From a phage, in the sequence record PX393108.1: a stretch of 64,000 nt of DNA; one strand, 5' to 3'. Position 1 is the first letter of the stretch, and the number at the start of each line of letters is the position of its first letter. The notes beneath the pieces are model-generated. The model did not search any database. It was not told where the DNA came from and saw only the letters and a list, made by a program, of their open reading frames with translations. Positions 711 through 19,677 of this stretch are shown here, piece by piece. Both the position numbers and the translations under genes were made by a program.

Positions 711-738
711 AGGGAGCCTTCGGGTTCCCTTTTTCTTT
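711..738 (+). terminator. Stem-loop (GGGAGCC-UUCG-GGUUCCC) followed by U-run; putative rho-independent terminator after gene 35
   Basis: Hairpin with UUCG tetraloop immediately 3' of gene 35 stop, followed by TTTTTCTTT. Confidence 0.5.
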
Positions 739-745
739 ATAAATA
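738..745 (+). promoter_or_regulatory. T4-type late promoter core TATAAATA upstream of gene 36
   Basis: Exact TATAAATA octamer about 24 nt upstream of the gene 36 ATG; T4 late promoters (gp55-dependent) have this consensus. Confidence 0.55.
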
Positions 746-768: not shown

Positions 769-1428
769 ATGGCTGATTTAAAAGTAGGTTCAACAACCGG
801 AGGCTCTGTCATTTGGCATCAAGGAAATTTTCCATTGAATCCAGCCGGTGACGATGTACTCTATAAATCATTTAAAATATATTCAGAATATAATAAACCA
901 CAAGCTGCTGATAACGATTTCGTTTCTAAAGCTAATGGCGGTATTTATCTAAACCGAGTTACCTTTAACAAGGGTATTCAAGTCCCGGGAGCTGGCAATG
1001 GTCTGACCGGGATGTTTGTTGGGCCAGGTGATGGAGCAACTTATGATAATGTTAACCTTGATATAATATCTTGGTATGGTATAGGATTTAAATCATCTCA
1101 AGGAACAGGACCTAGGACAATTGTTTTTAACGTTCGTGACGGTGAAATTTCGGCCCGTGGTAATATAAATTCACAGCGTCAGGTGCGAGCCGAAGCCGCA
1201 GCGCCCATTGCCGCAAATGATCTTACTAGAAAAGACTATGTTGATGGAGCAATAAATACTGTTACGGCAAATGCGAACTCTAGAGTGTTACGATCTGGCG
1301 ACACTATGACGGGTAACTTAACCGCACCAAACTTTTTTTCACAGAATCCTGCATCTCAACCTTCACACGTTCCACGATTTGACCAAATCGTAATTAAGGA
1401 TTCTGTTCAAGATTTCGGCTATTATTAA
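769..1428 (+). CDS. 36: Long tail fibre distal-half proximal subunit gp36
   Basis: 219 aa; sequence MADLKVGSTTGGSVIWHQGNF... matches T4 gp36 (about 221 aa); synteny. Confidence 0.9.
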   Translation: MADLKVGSTTGGSVIWHQGNFPLNPAGDDVLYKSFKIYSEYNKPQAADNDFVSKANGGIYLNRVTFNKGIQVPGAGNGLTGMFVGPGDGATYDNVNLDIISWYGIGFKSSQGTGPRTIVFNVRDGEISARGNINSQRQVRAEAAAPIAANDLTRKDYVDGAINTVTANANSRVLRSGDTMTGNLTAPNFFSQNPASQPSHVPRFDQIVIKDSVQDFGYY

Positions 1429-1436
1429 GAGGACTT

Positions 1437-4400
1437 ATGGCTACTTTAAAACAAATACAATTTAAAAGAAGCAAAACCGCAGGTGCACGTCCTGCTGCTT
1501 CAGTATTAGCCGAAGGTGAATTGGCTATAAACTTAAAAGATAGAACAATTTTTACTAAAGATGATTTAGGAAATATCATTGACTTAAGCATTTCTGCTGG
1601 CGGTAGTATCAGTGGAAATATCACTCAAACTGGCGATTATTTACAAAATGGAACATATAATCTTAATGGAAACCAGTTTGTTTATGCAGGAAAATATATT
1701 GAATTTTTACCTAAAACTGCTGGTAATGGTGCTTGGGCAAACCAACATAAAAATAAAGCTCCTATCTTTACAGATTTAAGTTCAACTACTTCTACTTCAG
1801 AATACCATCCGCTAATTAAGCAGCGTTACAAAGATGGGACTTTTTCTGTTGGTACGTTAGTAAATGAAGGAAGTTTTAAAATTCATTATATTAATGAATC
1901 GGGAACTTCAAAATATTGGACATTTCGTAGAGATGGTGGATTTGTTGTTGATACAGGAAGTTTAACAGTAACAGATGGAAATATTTCTGCTTCTGGTAAT
2001 ATTAATTCGGCTACTGGGATAGTTTCTGCTCCGCGCGTCAATACAAAAAATATTAACCTGAGTTCTAAAACCTTTATACCGAATAATGACACGGGTTATG
2101 ACATTGTTTCTTTACCTACTTGGATTTATAATCCACCAGCAGATGGTTCTGACCGTGATACAAACGGATTGAACTACATGCGTAAAATGCGGGCTTCAAA
2201 TACTTCTAGCATTTTCCATGAAATAGTTGACTGTCGTTCGGGAAAACCACAAGAAATTTCTTGGTGGACCGGCGTAGGACCTTCATCTTTCCAGTGGGCG
2301 TTTGATACCTCTGGACGTATTACCGCAGGTAAATCTATTTCAGTAGGTCTTCCTGATAGTGGTACAAATGGTCGTTATCCTTTAGATTCTGCAATTTCTA
2401 TTGGTATTGCGATTGGCGATAACGATACCGGTATTAAATGGGTCCGCGATGGCGTTTATGACCTGATGGCTAACGGTATTTCATCCGCTACCATTTTGAA
2501 TAATGGTATTAATAGTACTAAAAAATTGATGGTTGGTTATAGTCGAGATTCCGGTTCTACTTGGGATTTCCCAAATAACAACCAAGCAATGTTTACTGCG
2601 CGTACAGATATTGATGGTAATAATAACGGCGATGGTCAGACTCATATTGGTTATAGCAGCAATTCTAAAATGTATCACTATTTCCGTGGCACGGGTCGTA
2701 TGTCTGTTAGCATGGGCGATGGACTTCTTGTTGAGCCAGGTATTTTAGACATTAAAACTGGGTCTAATAGAGTTGCTATTAGAGCAGATGGTACATTTGA
2801 CTCAACCCAACGTATTTCAATGCGTACTGGATTATTTTTATCAGGTGATGATAATACCAATGCTTTGTCATTTAAAGCGCCTACAGGTGTTGACGGGACA
2901 AAAACCATTAACTGGGATGCAGGCACTCGTAATGGTCAGAATAAAAATACTGTAACCATTAAAGCGTGGGGTAACTCATTTAACTCAACTCCAGGTAATA
3001 GAGAAACTGTATTCGAAGTTTCAGATTCACAAGGTTATTATTTCTACGCTCAACGTACTAATCCTGCGTCAGGTCAAACAGTAGGTCCTATTAATTTTAA
3101 ATTTAATGGTACTGTAGAAACTGGACATATTGTCGGGCTCGGAAATATAAGTGCCTCTGGTACAGGTTCTTTTGGTGGCAATGTTACTATGTCTAACGGT
3201 TTGTTTGTCCAAGGTGGTTCTTCTATTACTGGACAAGTTAAAATCGGCGGAACTGTTGATGCATTAAGAATTTGGAATGCTGAATACGGTGCTATTTTCC
3301 GTCGTTCAGAAGCATCTTTGCATATTATCCCGACTCCTAAAGATGCCGGTGAAAGTGGTGGAATAAGTAATCTTCGTCCGCTTAGTATCAGCCTTAATAA
3401 TGGTATGGTACAAATGCGTCATTCTGTCACGTTAGGCGATGACAGCAGAGGTGGCAATATGATTACTGTAGACAACGATAATAAACTTGTTGTTATTACT
3501 AGTCATAGTCGCATTTCTCCTAATTACCGTATGCAGTTAGGTCAGGCTGCGTACATTGATGCAGAATGTACTGATGCTGTTCGCCCTGCTGGTGCAGGTT
3601 CATTCGCTTCACAAAATAATGAAAACGTTCGTGCTCCGTTCTACATGAATATAGATAGAACCGATACAAGCACTTATGTTCCTATTTTGAAGCAACGTTA
3701 TGTCCAAGGTAATGGTTGCTATTCATTAGGAACTTTAATTAATAATGGTAACTTCAGGGTTCATTATCATGGTGGCGGAGATAACGGTTCTTCAGGACCA
3801 CAAACAGCTGATTTTGGATGGGAATTTATTAAAAACGGTGATTTTATTTCACCTCGCGATTTAATAGCAGGCAAAGTCAGATTTGATAGAACTGGTAATA
3901 TTACCGGTGGTTCTGGTAATTTTGCTAACTTAGATACGACTTTAAACCGTAAAGTAACTACCGGCTGGATTAACTATTCTTCTGTGAGTGGTTGGTATAA
4001 ATTGGCAACAGTAACTATGCCTCAAGGTGTAGCTACGGTCCAATTTAAAATAACAGGCGGTTCCGGTTTTAACGTTGGTATTTTCAAACAAGCAACAATT
4101 AATGAAATTGTATTACGCTCGGGTAATAATACACCTAAAGGAATTAATGGTGTTTTATGGCAGCGTGAAACAGATGCTATTAAAGATATTGCGTATATTA
4201 ATACCTCAGGCGATGAGTATGATGTTTATATTAGTTGTGGCACTTATTTAAATAGACTTACCATAGAATATAGCACTTCAGAAAATGCTTCTGTGGTAGT
4301 TCATGGATTATATGGGCCTACGCAATCGCCGGTAGAAGAGCTTCCTGTAGATATTGTTAAAGGTCGTGTTTTTAAACTTCTTAATAATAGCTCAGGCGTT

Positions 4401-5393
4401 TTTGACGCGGGTAGTTCTAATATTTCTACAAATGCAACTTTTGTGGCAAATACTACTATAGGATACCGTCACAAATCTAACGGCGACGAAAGTGGCTCTG
4501 CAGCTGCTCTGTTTTATAATGATGGTACTACGTTCCACATATTATTAACAGATAAAAATACCGATACTGATAAAACTAAAGCCTCGGGTTCTTATAATAG
4601 CTTGAGACCTTTTTCTATCAATATCGCTTCAGGTAAAGTAACTATTTCAAACTCTATGAGCGTTTCTGGGGTATCAGAGTTTTGGAATGGCCTTAACATC
4701 AAAAATAATGGAAGCATTAACTTTGATAAGTCTGGTGCTAACCCGAGAAATATGAGAATATTTCATGCTGGCGATGCTTCTCGCGGTAACCGCATTGAAA
4801 TTGCAGATGAAACTAACTATATTGCTTACTTTGAAAAAACTCCAGGTGGAGCTAACCGCTTTGTAGTAAATAATGCTACTGTAGCTGGTGTTAACCAAAT
4901 GAATTCATTTGGTATTAATATCAATAACGCACTTGGTGGAAATAGTATAGCATTTGGTGATAATGATACTGGAATTAAACAATCCGGTGACGGAATTCTT
5001 GATATCATTACTAACGCCGCACGCCGAATGAGATTCCAATCGGGTGACACTTATTCTGACATGAATATAAATGCACCAAACGTTTATATTCGTTCTGATA
5101 TTCGTTTGAAATCTAATTTCAGACCTATTGAAAATGCTCTTGAAAAGGTTGAACAGCTTGATGGTTTAATCTATGATAAAGCTGACTATATAGGCGGTGA
5201 AATTGTTCAGACTGAAGCGGGTATTGTGGCTCAAACACTGCAAGATGTTTTACCAGAAGCAGTTCGTGAAGTTGAAGATATTAAGGGTAATAAAATACTC
5301 ACTGTTTCTTCTCAATCCCAGATTGCTCTTCTAGTTGAAGCTGTGAAAACACTTTCTGCTCGTGTAAAAGAACTTGAATATAAACTTATGTAA
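1437..5393 (+). CDS. 37: Long tail fibre distal subunit gp37, T2/T6-like (1318 aa) with C-terminal intramolecular-chaperone-like domain
   Basis: Large Gly/Ser/Asn/Thr-rich fibre protein directly after gene 36; length differs from T4 gp37 (1026 aa); last ~110 aa (…IYDKADYIGGEIVQTEAGIVAQTLQDVLPEAVREVEDIKGNKILTVSSQSQIALLVEAVKTLSARVKELEYKLM) resembles the auto-cleaved C-terminal chaperone domain of fibre/endosialidase proteins. Confidence 0.9.
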   Translation: MATLKQIQFKRSKTAGARPAASVLAEGELAINLKDRTIFTKDDLGNIIDLSISAGGSISGNITQTGDYLQNGTYNLNGNQFVYAGKYIEFLPKTAGNGAWANQHKNKAPIFTDLSSTTSTSEYHPLIKQRYKDGTFSVGTLVNEGSFKIHYINESGTSKYWTFRRDGGFVVDTGSLTVTDGNISASGNINSATGIVSAPRVNTKNINLSSKTFIPNNDTGYDIVSLPTWIYNPPADGSDRDTNGLNYMRKMRASNTSSIFHEIVDCRSGKPQEISWWTGVGPSSFQWAFDTSGRITAGKSISVGLPDSGTNGRYPLDSAISIGIAIGDNDTGIKWVRDGVYDLMANGISSATILNNGINSTKKLMVGYSRDSGSTWDFPNNNQAMFTARTDIDGNNNGDGQTHIGYSSNSKMYHYFRGTGRMSVSMGDGLLVEPGILDIKTGSNRVAIRADGTFDSTQRISMRTGLFLSGDDNTNALSFKAPTGVDGTKTINWDAGTRNGQNKNTVTIKAWGNSFNSTPGNRETVFEVSDSQGYYFYAQRTNPASGQTVGPINFKFNGTVETGHIVGLGNISASGTGSFGGNVTMSNGLFVQGGSSITGQVKIGGTVDALRIWNAEYGAIFRRSEASLHIIPTPKDAGESGGISNLRPLSISLNNGMVQMRHSVTLGDDSRGGNMITVDNDNKLVVITSHSRISPNYRMQLGQAAYIDAECTDAVRPAGAGSFASQNNENVRAPFYMNIDRTDTSTYVPILKQRYVQGNGCYSLGTLINNGNFRVHYHGGGDNGSSGPQTADFGWEFIKNGDFISPRDLIAGKVRFDRTGNITGGSGNFANLDTTLNRKVTTGWINYSSVSGWYKLATVTMPQGVATVQFKITGGSGFNVGIFKQATINEIVLRSGNNTPKGINGVLWQRETDAIKDIAYINTSGDEYDVYISCGTYLNRLTIEYSTSENASVVVHGLYGPTQSPVEELPVDIVKGRVFKLLNNSSGVFDAGSSNISTNATFVANTTIGYRHKSNGDESGSAAALFYNDGTTFHILLTDKNTDTDKTKASGSYNSLRPFSINIASGKVTISNSMSVSGVSEFWNGLNIKNNGSINFDKSGANPRNMRIFHAGDASRGNRIEIADETNYIAYFEKTPGGANRFVVNNATVAGVNQMNSFGININNALGGNSIAFGDNDTGIKQSGDGILDIITNAARRMRFQSGDTYSDMNINAPNVYIRSDIRLKSNFRPIENALEKVEQLDGLIYDKADYIGGEIVQTEAGIVAQTLQDVLPEAVREVEDIKGNKILTVSSQSQIALLVEAVKTLSARVKELEYKLM

Positions 5394-5395
5394 AA

Positions 5396-5411
5396 GAGGG
5401 CTTCGGCCCTC
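5396..5411 (+). terminator. GC-rich UUCG-tetraloop hairpin (GAGGGC-UUCG-GCCCUC) after gene 37; weak terminator or RNA-stability element
   Basis: Perfect 6-bp stem with UUCG loop just 3' of the gene 37 stop; no strong U-tract. Confidence 0.35.
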
Positions 5412-5423
5412 TAAGGATTTTTA

Positions 5424-6209
5424 ATGGCAATTGTAGGTGTTCCTGGCTGGATTGGTGAATCTGCCGTGAATGAAACTGGACAACGTTGGATGGATGCTGC
5501 AATGAAAGCAGTTCGTGTTTCAGTTCCCGGTTGGATGAGCTCAATGGCTGGACAATCTAAAGAAGTATATTATAGCATTGGTGCTAGCAATTCTTATAAT
5601 AAAGACACACTAATAAATTGGATAAAAGCCCAAGGAAGTACTCCTGTTGTTATTACAATTACAGGCAATATCGTTTCTTCATCGACAGGTCAACCATGCT
5701 TAGATTTTCCTAGCTCATTAACTAATGCGTACGTGACACTTAATATCAATTCAGGTGTGCATGTTTGGGGTCGTGGAGGGAATGGTGGAAATAACTCTGC
5801 TGGTGGAGCAGGAGGAACTGCAATAAATAACGGAATTGGAACTAGATTACGTATTAACAACAACGGTGTTATCGCAGGAGGCGGTGGCGGCGGTGGCGGC
5901 GGATACTACTCTCCTTTTTCACAAATGAAATTGACTTTTGGCGGTGGCGGCGGTCGTCCATTTGGTGCTGCTGGCGGCTCTGCTAATATGGAACAAGGTG
6001 CTACCGCTGGTACTATTTCTGCACCCGGTAAAGGGTCTGTTAACGGTATCTATAATGGCGGGAATGGTGGTGATGCCGGAGCTGCAGGAGGTAAATGTAA
6101 TATTCGCGGCCAAGGATCAGAATATAACGGCGGCGCAGCAGGTAAAGCTGTTACTGGTAATGCTCCAACTTGGACTAAAGTTGGTACAATATACGGTTCA
6201 AGAGTATAA
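5424..6209 (+). CDS. 38: Receptor-recognising adhesin gp38 (T2-type, glycine-rich motifs)
   Basis: 261 aa with poly-Gly islands (GGGGGGGGGYY, FGGGGGRPFGAAGG) separated by variable segments; position after gene 37 and before t; T2-family gp38 is a tip adhesin of this architecture, unlike the 183-aa T4 gp38 chaperone. Confidence 0.85.
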   Translation: MAIVGVPGWIGESAVNETGQRWMDAAMKAVRVSVPGWMSSMAGQSKEVYYSIGASNSYNKDTLINWIKAQGSTPVVITITGNIVSSSTGQPCLDFPSSLTNAYVTLNINSGVHVWGRGGNGGNNSAGGAGGTAINNGIGTRLRINNNGVIAGGGGGGGGGYYSPFSQMKLTFGGGGGRPFGAAGGSANMEQGATAGTISAPGKGSVNGIYNGGNGGDAGAAGGKCNIRGQGSEYNGGAAGKAVTGNAPTWTKVGTIYGSRV

Positions 6210-6896: not shown

Positions 6897-7169
6897 TTAT
6901 TTGTTTGTATACATCTCTAGATATCGATATACACCCTCAAAACCCTCGTTGAATTCGTCGATGAGGGTTTTCTTATCTTCTTGGGTTAATTCAGAAACAA
7001 TTTTACGGAATGAATTCTGATTTAATTTTCTACCTTCATGCGTTACTCCAATCTCATTCAGAAATGCAATAAAATTAGCACGATTCTCAACAATATCTTC
7101 TCTGGAAAATTTAATCAAAATGGACGCAACAGTAATAATTTCACGAACTGTATCAATGTTTTTATTCAT
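6897..7169 (-). CDS. asiA: Anti-sigma-70 factor AsiA
   Basis: 90 aa, MNKNIDTVREIITVASILIKFSREDIVENRANFIAFLNEIGV... matches T4 AsiA. Confidence 0.95.
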   Translation of the reverse strand: MNKNIDTVREIITVASILIKFSREDIVENRANFIAFLNEIGVTHEGRKLNQNSFRKIVSELTQEDKKTLIDEFNEGFEGVYRYLEMYTNK

Positions 7170-17820: not shown

Positions 17821-17860
17821 CCAATTAATTATACCACATCCTTGTGGTAAAGTAAACTAT
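17821..17860 (-). promoter_or_regulatory. T4-type early promoter (-35 GTTTACT, 17 nt, -10 TATAAT) overlapping the gene 39 stop
   Basis: Minus strand GTTTACTTTACCACAAGGATGTGGTATAAT. Confidence 0.6.
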
Positions 17861-19677
17861 TGGCTCATCCATTCTTTACGAAGGTCAGCATTATCTCCCA
17901 TGAGCATTTCAAAAAGCTCTTTCCAGTTCTCAGGAAGTTTAACAACATCATATACTGGGTTTTGAATCATCTCACGATATTCAGATTTTTCCAAAGAGCC
18001 AAGTCCCTTAATATAACGGATGCTATGTTTAGGTAGAGCATCTTTAGCACTCTCATATTCAGCGACTGTATAAAACCATTCTTGTTTTTTACCGACCTGA
18101 GCGATGATTACAGGAGTTTTGACAAAGCGAATTCTTCCTTGTTCAAACAGTTCTGGCCAATTACTAAAAAATCCGAGCAGAGAAGGATAAATGCTTCCTA
18201 GACCATCATGGTCAGCATCGGTCATAATAGCAATATTATGATAATTCAAGTTTTCGGCTTTTTCACCAAGAACTAATCCAGTGATTGCGCAAATATCAAA
18301 CAGTTCTTTGTTTTTAAGCATATCAGCATATGACATACCCCAACTGTTGAGAACTTTACCACGTAATGGATAACCACCATGAAGTTCTTTATCACGAACA
18401 TCAATAAGATACCCAATAGCCGAATCACCCTCAGTCAAGAAAAGAGTAGTGTCAGCATCTTTACCACAAAGATTCGCTTTAATATGTTTATGAACCTTAG
18501 CTTTAGAAGCCTTTTTAGCTGCTTTAGTTTCTGCTGCTTTTTCTGCCGCCAATTTACGAGCCAAAGCAGCTTCAATGATTGGCATTAAAATTGCTTCATT
18601 ATTTAAAATAGCACGTGAAATCTTTTTAGCATCAAGCTGAATATGACTACGAATTTCACCAAATGGAGAAGTCAAACGCTCTTTAGTTTGAGAATCAAAT
18701 CGCATGTTTTTCATATCACGGACAAACATAACGATAGTCAAACATTCTTTAACACGTGCTTTAGTTACATCAATTTTGAACTTACGTTTGATTTGTGGAA
18801 TAAGGTCTTCACAAATATCATCCATAACACAGTCAATGTGATGACCACCATTCTTAGTATGAATGTTATTGACGTATGTTAATTGACGAAAACCATCCGG
18901 TGAACGACCAACCGCAATAGAGCAATTTTCCTGTTCTTGAACGATAGCATGCTCATCATATTGGCGTGCATATTTCTTAAAATTACCTTGAACCTTTTTG
19001 CCATTAAAGGTAAATTGAATATCAGGATAAACTACTGCAAGTGTCTGGAGACGATCTAGTGTAATGTCAAGATAAACTTGAGATAGCTCATTAGTTTCAA
19101 ATGACATAAAATCAGGAATGAAAGTAACGCGAGTTCCTTTCCATTTTCCAGGAATAGTTTCCCATGATTTATTTTCCATGCCGTTTGAACAACGAACTAC
19201 AATATTATTTTGACCGTCGCCAGTTTCACCGACAAACATCACAGAAAAAATGTTAGTTAAACTAGAGCCAACACCGTTCATACCGCCAGTGACGCGTTCT
19301 TTGTCATCGCCGAAGTTACCACCTGCTTTTGGAATAGTCCAGGCAGCAACAGGACCAGGAATTTCTTCACCGGTAGGTGTTTTAACCATCGCCTGTGGAA
19401 TACCACGACCGTTATCTTCAACTGTTACTTGATTGTTTTTGATAGTAACATTAATTTTATTCGCGAATTTAAACTTAGTACGAATACCTTCATCTACTGA
19501 GTTATCGATAATTTCATCAATAAGCTTAACAAGACCAGGTACATACTGAACACTTTCCCATTTACCAAACAGAAAGCGCTCATGCATTTCATTAGCAGAA
19601 GAGCCAATATACATGCCGCTACGCTTTTTGATATGTTCAATATCGCTCAGAATTTTAATTTCATTCTTAATCATCAC
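17857..19677 (-). CDS. 39: DNA topoisomerase II large (ATPase) subunit gp39, uninterrupted
   Basis: 606 aa GyrB-like protein; contains in one reading frame what T4 splits into genes 39 and 60. Confidence 0.95.
   Translation of the reverse strand: MMIKNEIKILSDIEHIKKRSGMYIGSSANEMHERFLFGKWESVQYVPGLVKLIDEIIDNSVDEGIRTKFKFANKINVTIKNNQVTVEDNGRGIPQAMVKTPTGEEIPGPVAAWTIPKAGGNFGDDKERVTGGMNGVGSSLTNIFSVMFVGETGDGQNNIVVRCSNGMENKSWETIPGKWKGTRVTFIPDFMSFETNELSQVYLDITLDRLQTLAVVYPDIQFTFNGKKVQGNFKKYARQYDEHAIVQEQENCSIAVGRSPDGFRQLTYVNNIHTKNGGHHIDCVMDDICEDLIPQIKRKFKIDVTKARVKECLTIVMFVRDMKNMRFDSQTKERLTSPFGEIRSHIQLDAKKISRAILNNEAILMPIIEAALARKLAAEKAAETKAAKKASKAKVHKHIKANLCGKDADTTLFLTEGDSAIGYLIDVRDKELHGGYPLRGKVLNSWGMSYADMLKNKELFDICAITGLVLGEKAENLNYHNIAIMTDADHDGLGSIYPSLLGFFSNWPELFEQGRIRFVKTPVIIAQVGKKQEWFYTVAEYESAKDALPKHSIRYIKGLGSLEKSEYREMIQNPVYDVVKLPENWKELFEMLMGDNADLRKEWMSQ

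Follow-up and report, generated by a model that had tools for sequence, protein, structure and literature searches.

A Tequatrovirus distal tail-fibre module of the T2/T6/S16 adhesin type, with a predicted self-cleaving gp37 and a Tsx-type gp38

The 64,000-nucleotide stretch of phage DNA analysed here (record PX393108.1; below, the window) carries genes 37 and 38 near its start. Together these genes very probably encode a Tequatrovirus module for host recognition at the distal end of the long tail fibre, one of the T2/T6/S16 "adhesin" type with a self-cleaving chaperone on gp37 and a Tsx-type gp38. The architecture of this module, described for T-even phages (PMC6851490, PMC3157838), is already known, and it is both common and well characterised. 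In the proposed assembly, gp37 (1318 aa) would trimerise with the aid of its own C-terminal chaperone (residues 1220-1318), which would then remove itself by Ser1220/Lys1225 autoproteolysis between R1219 and S1220 and so expose a hydrophobic tip on the trimer. A single gp38 would dock on that tip via an N-terminal three-helix domain (W9, W22, W37), giving a predicted 3:1 assembly of gp37 and gp38. At the extreme end of the fibre, gp38 would form a polyglycine-II sandwich whose five variable loops touch the receptor.

Layout of the locus

The backbone of the window is that of a Tequatrovirus, 94-97.5% identical to known phages over a 24.7-kb segment (megablast). Gene order is 35-36-37-38-t, genes 37 and 38 being flanked by gene 36 and the holin gene t. 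A preliminary description, made from the letters of the window, had placed the two reading frames of the module where they are found, at the sizes listed here, and had quoted the T4 reference sizes correctly (gp37, 1026 aa; gp38, 183 aa). The features of the locus are as follows:

738..745, + strand: T4-type late promoter box TATAAATA, ahead of gene 36
769..1428, + strand: gp36, hinge/distal connector of the long tail fibre, 219 aa (Pfam Phage_T4_gp36, E 2.6e-33; PHROG 1425, E 1.5e-68)
1437-5393, + strand: gp37 gene, an open reading frame of 1318 aa
1437..5093, + strand: predicted mature gp37, residues 1-1219, comprising the distal half-fibre shaft and the gp38 docking tip (PHROG 1699, 6f45_A, predicted cleavage site)
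3250..4650, + strand: KFS-EC3-type recombinant patch in gene 37, about residues 605-1071 (100-nt identity windows)
5094..5393, + strand: C-terminal intramolecular chaperone / Peptidase S74 domain, residues 1220-1318 (99 aa), plus stop codon (PF13884)
5395..5412, + strand: UUCG-tetraloop hairpin, lying after the stop codon of gene 37 and before the ribosome-binding site of gene 38 (7-pair stem, 5 of the pairs G-C)
5424-6209, + strand: gp38 gene, an open reading frame of 261 aa
5424..5558, + strand: gp38 N-terminal attachment domain, residues 1-45, T2-type (Gp38_N; W9, W22, W37)
5559..5768, + strand: gp38 residues 46-115, N-terminal part of the central beta-helix (Pfam GP38; beta strands in the model, pLDDT 91-98)
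5769..6152, + strand: gp38 receptor-binding region, residues 116-243 (column entropy, 90 homologues)
6153..6209, + strand: gp38 conserved C-terminal end, residues 244-261, plus stop codon (low entropy)

The late promoter box at 738-745 is one of three exact TATAAATA matches in the window and the sole one in its first 20 kb. It lies directly 3' of the gp35 stop codon and of a hairpin with a T-run (710-731). On the strength of established T4 biology, from which the promoter role of the box is taken, genes 36-37-38 are probably driven from it as a single unit, possibly together with t. The hairpin at 5395-5412 has a minimum free energy of -13.4 kcal/mol, and the homologous site in phage NR1 carries a terminator annotation. 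A part for this hairpin in setting the gp37:gp38 ratio was considered and is not claimed, its stability departing only slightly from expectation (z = -1.85). Across the whole 64,000-nt window, neither an Rfam nor a tRNA scan gave a hit.

The C-terminal chaperone domain of gp37

Over its entire length (residues 1-1318), gp37 matches the PHROG 1699 family, "long tail fiber protein distal subunit", at 1072 bits. The trimeric beta-helix tip of gp37 from Salmonella phage S16 (PDB 6f45_A) can be aligned with residues 1162-1219, and the last 99 of the 1318 residues of this distal subunit make up the S74 domain. The chaperone-like character of the C-terminus, which the preliminary description had proposed to check by a profile search, is confirmed by such a search: Pfam Peptidase_S74 (PF13884) matches residues 1220-1277 across the full profile (positions 1-58 of 58) with an E-value of 9.8e-14 and 51.8 bits, as judged against a curated gathering cut-off of 22 bits. 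An NCBIfam scan of gp37 and gp38, using a library aimed at bacterial and archaeal annotation, returned no families.

At the N-terminal border of the S74 domain lies the cleavage motif NVYIR^SDIRLK, which contains the Ser1220/Lys1225 dyad. The S, D, R, and K of the SDxRxK pattern are invariant in the window, T2, T6, S16, dhaeg, Bas39, and KFS-EC3, and in the chaperone core the G, A, Q, L, and P likewise do not vary among the window, T2, T6, S16, and further phages. A profile built on C-terminal gp37 sequences also reaches other solved domains of S74 type, namely the MYRF autoprocessing domain (7dc3; E 7.6e-9), a tail fibre structure (8jov; E 1e-7), and the 3gud structure of the GA-1 neck appendage chaperone (E 0.008), the chain of which starts at the homologous SDERHK. 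In S16, gp37 is autocleaved at DLNVS^SDRRIKK, and cleavage exposes the docking surface (PMC7917993). By analogy, the gp37 of the window is predicted to cleave itself between R1219 and S1220 and to release the chaperone domain. Because the 99-aa domain is 76-100% identical among Tequatrovirus and Dhakavirus alleles while their shafts are far more divergent, it appears to be under purifying selection.

The gp37 of T2 (AP018813), the prototype of the adhesin architecture, is of similar length (1341 aa) and has an identical cleavage motif, NVYIR^SDIRLK, within a chaperone that is 80-94% identical. That of T6 (MH550421) also ends in an S74 chaperone, with the motif YIR^SDSRLK; however, the protein is just 994 aa long, and identity to the window does not exceed 46% in its tip and chaperone. 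The S16 tip complex (PDB 6f45) serves as the structural reference, its domain plan being alike in both gp37 and gp38; S16 gp37 is shorter (749 aa) and its chaperone has 112 aa; both this chaperone and the tip can be aligned with the corresponding parts of the window's gp37, cleavage motif included. T4 (NC_000866) has the same gene positions, and the first 50 residues of gp37 are 94% identical, yet its gp37 (1026 aa) has neither an SDxRxK motif nor an S74 domain and binds the receptor with a tip of its own, while its gp38 (183 aa) is an unrelated chaperone.

The gp38 adhesin and its predicted receptor

Over its full length, the gp38 of the window can be aligned with the adhesins of T2, T6, and S16. 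Residues 47-261 match the Pfam GP38 adhesin family (PF05268) with an E-value of 2e-71 (240.8 bits), residues 1-42 match Gp38_N (PF21721; E 7.2e-18, 64.8 bits), and the protein falls in the PHROG 2056 family, "host specificity" (E 1.6e-104). For gp37 and gp38 alike, Pfam matches of this strength reflect homology and are no product of chance. At the sequence level, residues 8-259 match S16 gp38 (6f45_D) with an E-value of 4.7e-49. The AlphaFold model of gp38 (pLDDT 93.5, pTM 0.87) resembles the same chain in a Foldseek search of the PDB (E 1.3e-21, TM 0.79/0.83) and also the gp38 of PP01 (9v85; E 2e-19, TM 0.73/0.85); apart from these two adhesins, the search with this model returned nothing below E = 4.

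W9, W22, and W37 of the attachment domain are invariant in the gp38 alignment that includes T2, T6, and S16, and W9 and W22 are conserved in at least 90% of 90 homologues. Short helices occur at residues 10-18, 23-29, and 38-41 of the model, and three gp38 tryptophans on N-terminal helices are known to plug into the gp37 trimer (PMC6851490). At the other end of the protein, P248, W250, G254, I256, Y257, and G258 are conserved. A locus search of IMG/VR with the N-terminal 110 aa found three loci.

Glycine makes up 23% of gp38 overall and 33% of residues 110-261, with runs at G152-G160 and G173-G177. Conserved Gly-rich motifs occupy residues 116-122, 127-131, 152-159, 173-177, 213-223, and 236-240, glycine columns being counted as conserved when present in at least 80% of 90 homologues; these columns fall between the variable segments. 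Five such segments are defined by column entropy: residues 124-126 (nt 5793-5801), 160-172 (nt 5901-5939), 184-194 (nt 5973-6005), 204-212 (nt 6033-6059), and 224-235 (nt 6093-6128). Column entropy over the 90 homologues thus bears out the preliminary description, in which glycine motifs were noted to alternate with variable segments.

The closest gp38 proteins, 98.9-99.2% identical overall, belong to Bas39 (Escherichia phage FriedrichMiescher, MZ501066), slur02/04, teqsoen, JK38, and vB_Eco_NR1, a group with the same gene order as the window. Relative to Bas39 there are three substitutions (K28R, S86Q, and Q90V), all outside the specificity region, and residues 116-261 are 100% identical. In the BASEL collection, the primary receptor of Bas39 is Tsx (PMC8594841, supplementary file 5). 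T6, the classical Tsx-binding adhesin, likewise has a gp38 of 261 aa with the same layout of Gly motifs and variable segments; its N-terminal half is divergent (67% identity in residues 1-45, 33% in residues 46-115), whereas the three longer variable segments (residues 161-172, 186-211, and 224-235) are 83%, 77%, and 83% identical. The variable segments are also nearly identical to those of phage FL23, whose infection depends on Tsx (PMC12032242). According to Trojet et al., nearly all Tsx-binding gp38 adhesins have one common set of variable segments (PMC3157838). T2, which uses FadL, shows the opposite pattern: its gp38 attachment domain is 96% identical to that of the window, but the three longer variable segments are merely 0-25% identical, and its receptor specificity is therefore taken to differ. 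By sequence, gp38 is a chimera of a known type that joins an attachment domain like that of T2 to a specificity domain like that of T6. The gp38 of S16, which binds Salmonella OmpC, is about 50% identical (47% pairwise), with variable segments unrelated to those of the window (0-23% identity). Tsx, the nucleoside channel of E. coli, is most probably the primary receptor, given that gp38 has the loops of Bas39 unaltered and that these closely resemble the loops of T6 and FL23. The idea that the segments between the glycine motifs set the receptor is retained from the preliminary description, and its open list of candidates (OmpA, OmpC, FadL, Tsx) is narrowed to a predicted Tsx.

Other readings of the module differ in how much they would change. 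Database labels on gp38 homologues ("distal long tail fiber assembly catalyst" or "tail assembly protein"), transferred from T4 nomenclature, would suit a T4-style assembly chaperone that is absent from the virion and leaves receptor binding to gp37. This is scarcely credible: gp38 has no similarity to T4 gp38 (BLASTP best 11 bits, E = 21) and is strongly similar in both sequence and fold to the solved tip adhesins of S16 and PP01, while gp37 is without the T4 receptor-binding needle, having 0-6% identity to T4 past residue 1100 and an S74 chaperone instead. The assignment of gp38 to the adhesin type rather than the T4 chaperone type in the preliminary description is upheld by this result and by the alignment with T2, T6, and S16; both observations that could have told against that description, a gp37 C-terminus unlike any chaperone and a T4-like gp38, came out the other way. 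It is likewise very improbable that the S74-like domain is a decayed remnant, neither cleaved nor needed, with gp37 persisting at full length. Such a reading draws on the fact that cleavage is deduced here from homology, but it has to contend with an end-to-end Pfam match well over the cut-off, with the invariance of the Ser and Lys of SDxRxK and of the chaperone core residues, and with the high identity of the 99-aa domain despite far more divergent shafts.

The receptor leaves somewhat more room. It is unlikely, though clearly less so than either of these readings, that a module of the same architecture does not use Tsx alone as its primary receptor and instead recognises OmpA, OmpC, OmpF, FadL, or LPS, or a dual set such as the Tsx and OmpA of phage PST. 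Trojet et al. found that a handful of substitutions in variable segments of T6 type (HVS2 and HVS3) can widen specificity to OmpA and Yersinia, as in PST, and that factors beyond the variable segments may contribute to specificity (PMC3157838); in addition, the gp37 shaft is unlike that of Bas39 (32-66% identity over much of its length). Set against these points are the identity of gp38 residues 116-261 with those of Bas39, which is Tsx-dependent on K-12, the low identity of the three longer segments to the FadL and OmpC adhesins of T2 and S16 (just 0-25%), and the nearly identical variable segments of the Tsx-dependent FL23. The PST-type caveat is weak here because the specificity domain is unchanged relative to Bas39. 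No result of the analysis runs counter to the preferred reading of the module, a Tsx-type adhesin on a self-cleaving gp37.

The mosaic shaft and its implications

The shaft of gp37 is a new shuffle of known segments of REP1/slur07 type and KFS-EC3 type. The best full-length match is the gp37 of REP1 (OQ174500), with 86% amino acid identity; the gp37 of Bas39 has 1260 aa, and for most of the shaft its identity is just 32-66%. From nt 3269 to 4668, identity to KFS-EC3 (MZ065353) is 94-100% in 100-nt windows, and megablast gives 98.1% for nt 3330-4050. Within this patch, identity to REP1, slur07, and NR1 drops to 20-54% (nt 3369-3868) and is close again from about nt 4170; in the gp37 of these three phages, some 50 residues are lacking or replaced around residues 650-800. 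Residues 701-800, inside the patch, are also 92-98% identical to T4 gp37 at the protein level. The flanks of the patch (nt 1437-3250 and 4650-5400) are of REP1/slur07 type, with 92-100% identity when the better of the two is taken for each 100-nt block. In the preceding gene, the central part of gp36 (nt 869-1270) is 96-98% T2-type. Throughout genes 36-38, some known phage reaches 92% identity or more in each 100-nt block. None of REP1, slur07, and KFS-EC3 carries the segment combination of the window, and the exact gp37 sequence is absent from a collection of 15 billion proteins.

It is improbable, if slightly less so than the decay of the S74 domain, that this shaft, with its KFS-EC3-type patch of roughly 470 residues and T4-like stretches, is more than a passive spacer and that, joined to a tip of T2 type and a Tsx adhesin of T6 type, it may alter fibre length, flexibility, or secondary contact with LPS or O-antigen. 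If the shaft did act in this way, host range would differ from that of other phages sharing the same gp38. Lutz et al. describe phages that share an identical Gp38 but differ in genome and in infection pattern (PMC12032242, Fig. 3 legend).

The practical value of these findings lies in annotation and host-range prediction. The module can confidently be annotated as a distal fibre gp37 with a self-cleaving chaperone and a gp38 adhesin of Tsx type. The Tsx assignment predicts that tsx loss-of-function mutants of E. coli would resist the phage, and exchange of the five mapped variable segments would be expected to retarget it. The locus is another case of mosaicism in the evolution of T-even tail-fibre genes, a phenomenon already well known.

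Layout of the distal tail-fibre locus

The window has a Tequatrovirus backbone whose DNA is 94-97.5% identical to slur02, ECO07P1, JoYop and other phages. The distal long tail fibre is encoded near its left end by genes 37 and 38, for which the preliminary description gave the exact coordinates and sizes.

Features of the tail-fibre locus
2-706, + strand: gene 35, C-terminal 234 codons, open from nt 2 and running off the window's left end
710-731, + strand: hairpin with T-run
738-745, + strand: T4 late-promoter box TATAAATA
769-1428, + strand: gene 36, 219 aa
1437-5393, + strand: gp37 ORF, 1318 aa
5395-5412, + strand: UUCG hairpin, 18 nt
5424-6209, + strand: gp38 ORF, 261 aa
6240-6896, + strand: holin gene t

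The first hairpin (GAGGGAGCC-TTCG-GGTTCCCTT) has a UUCG tetraloop and lies directly 3' of the gene 35 stop codon; the late-promoter box follows directly, 24 nt upstream of gene 36. The other UUCG-tetraloop hairpin, AGAGGGC-TTCG-GCCCTCT, has a minimum free energy of -13.4 kcal/mol (z = -1.85) and separates the stop codon of gene 37 from the Shine-Dalgarno sequence of gene 38; the homologous site in phage NR1 carries a terminator annotation. The late tail-fibre/holin transcript probably terminates at a strong hairpin of 14 bp with a T-rich tail (6939-6971, +), which lies about 40 nt downstream of t, within the convergent asiA coding sequence (6897-7169, - strand). Scans of the whole window (1-64000) gave no tRNA gene and, at the gathering threshold, no Rfam family. 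Elsewhere, a 606-aa ORF (17857-19677, - strand) occupies the place of a DNA topoisomerase II large subunit in matching phage records, one of which names that gene 'gp60plus39'. In T4, genes 39 and 60 are split, with translational bypass; from its position and the neighboring-record labels, this ORF would be a fused form.

The gp37 chaperone and the gp38 adhesin

Over its full length, gp37 matches PHROG 1699 ('long tail fiber protein distal subunit', 1072 bits). The entire Pfam Peptidase_S74 profile ('chaperone of endosialidase') aligns with residues 1220-1277 (E 9.8e-14; 51.8 bits versus a cut-off of 22). Seven gp37 C-termini, combined into one profile, also retrieve solved members of the family: 7dc3, the MYRF autoprocessing domain (E 7.6e-9); 8jov, a tail fibre (E 1e-7); and 3gud, the neck appendage chaperone of GA-1 (E 0.008), whose chain begins at SDERHK, aligned with SDIRLK of gp37. 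Residues 1162-1219, just before the chaperone, align with the trimeric gp37 tip of Salmonella phage S16 (crystal structure 6f45_A). The proposed intramolecular chaperone-like C-terminus is therefore borne out by profile search.

The domain starts at S1220-D-I-R-L-K1225, immediately preceded by NVYIR. Equivalent junctions are NVYIR^SDIRLK in T2 (99-aa domain), VYIR^SDSRLK in T6 (113 aa) and LNVS^SDRRIK in S16 (112 aa), whereas T4 gp37 is without an SDxRxK-type motif. The S16 chaperone undergoes autocleavage at DLNVS^SDRRIKK following trimerisation, exposing the gp38 docking surface (PMC7917993). By alignment, the gp37 cut is predicted between R1219 and S1220, and would set free a 99-aa peptide from a 1219-aa mature protein. 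Two copies of GDNDTGIK are present in gp37, near residues 337 (window ~2440-2470) and 1174 (~4950-4980). The second copy sits in the S16-like, gp38-docking tip domain; the first suggests internal duplication of a tip beta-helix unit inside the shaft.

Pfam assigns gp38 residues 1-42 to Gp38_N (E 7e-18) and 47-261 to the GP38 adhesin family (E 2e-71). Residues 8-259 align with the S16 adhesin (6f45_D, E 4.7e-49); a further alignment is to 9v85, the receptor-binding domain of PP01 gp38 (E 1e-32). There is no similarity to the 183-aa gp38 of T4 (E = 21), so the protein is adhesin-type rather than T4 chaperone-type, as first proposed. An AlphaFold model from 90 homologues (mean pLDDT 93.5, pTM 0.87) has as its only significant PDB neighbours S16 gp38 (TM 0.79/0.83) and PP01 gp38 (TM 0.73/0.85), the next lying at E = 4.8. 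The three tryptophans by which S16 gp38 plugs into the gp37 trimer (PMC6851490) correspond to W9, W22 and W37.

By column entropy in the alignment of the 90 homologues, the variable segments are residues 124-126, 160-172, 184-194, 204-212 and 224-235. They alternate, as the preliminary description held, with glycine motifs kept in at least 80% of homologues (116-122, 127-131, 152-159, 173-177, 213-223 and 236-240). An arrangement of this kind, glycine-rich motifs interspersed with hypervariable segments, is published (PMC3157838), and it agrees with the S16 polyglycine sandwich and its five distal loops (PMC6851490).

Receptor prediction

The exact gp38 sequence is already present in a public collection, and the protein is 98.9-99.2% identical to gp38 of many sequenced phages. 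From that of Bas39 (Escherichia phage FriedrichMiescher) it departs only by K28R, S86Q and Q90V, with residues 116-261 identical. In the BASEL collection, the primary receptor of Bas39 is Tsx and its terminal receptor the deep LPS core (PMC8594841, supplementary file 5). The variable segments of the Tsx-dependent phage FL23 are also nearly identical.

Identity to window gp38 in the three longer variable segments (161-172, 186-211, 224-235) and the attachment domain (residues 1-45)
T6 gp38 (Tsx): variable segments 77-83%; attachment domain 67%
T2 gp38 (FadL): variable segments 0-25%; attachment domain 96%
S16 gp38 (OmpC): variable segments 8-23%; attachment domain 47%

By these identities, gp38 is a chimera of a known kind, with a T2-type attachment domain and a T6-type specificity domain. 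The former agrees with the T2-type gp37 tip and chaperone: the counterpart of residues 1201-1318 is 80-94% identical in T2 and 33-46% in T6. Tsx is the best receptor prediction, as judged from close homologues. A few substitutions can broaden the specificity of T6-like adhesins (PMC3157838), a caveat tempered by the absence of any substitution in the specificity domain relative to Bas39.

Mosaic structure and standing of the module

REP1 has the gp37 closest to this one over its full length among 50,697 phage records, at only 86% identity; a 15-billion-sequence collection does not contain the exact protein. Sliding-window comparison in 100-nt blocks resolves the following segments.

Segments of genes 37 and 38
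1437-3250, + strand: gene 37, REP1/slur07-type, 92-100% (better of the two per 100-nt block)
3269-4668, + strand: gene 37 patch, KFS-EC3-type, 94-100%
4650-5400, + strand: gene 37 end, REP1-type again
5424-6209, + strand: gene 38, NR1/KFS-EC3/Bas39-type

Within the KFS-EC3-type patch, T4 gp37 is 92-98% identical to residues 701-800. Gene 36 is also mosaic: its central 400 nt (869-1270) are 96-98% identical to T2 and only 55-87% identical to REP1, KFS-EC3, JoYop and T4, which match its ends at 98-100%. No 100-nt block from gene 36 to gene 38 falls below 92% identity to the closest of eight known phages. This segment-wise mosaic of known types explains both the full-length match of only 86% and the lack of an exact copy; the gp37 allele is new solely as a combination of known segments.

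The preliminary observation is thus confirmed and its interpretation supported. Autocleavage of gp37, a 3:1 gp37:gp38 assembly and Tsx dependence would follow by analogy with close homologues. The module's architecture is the common type among T-even phages and has been characterised for its genetics, structure and receptor use; the authors of the S16 structure regard T4 as the less common representative (PMC6851490). Segment shuffling is the normal evolutionary mode at the tail-fibre locus.
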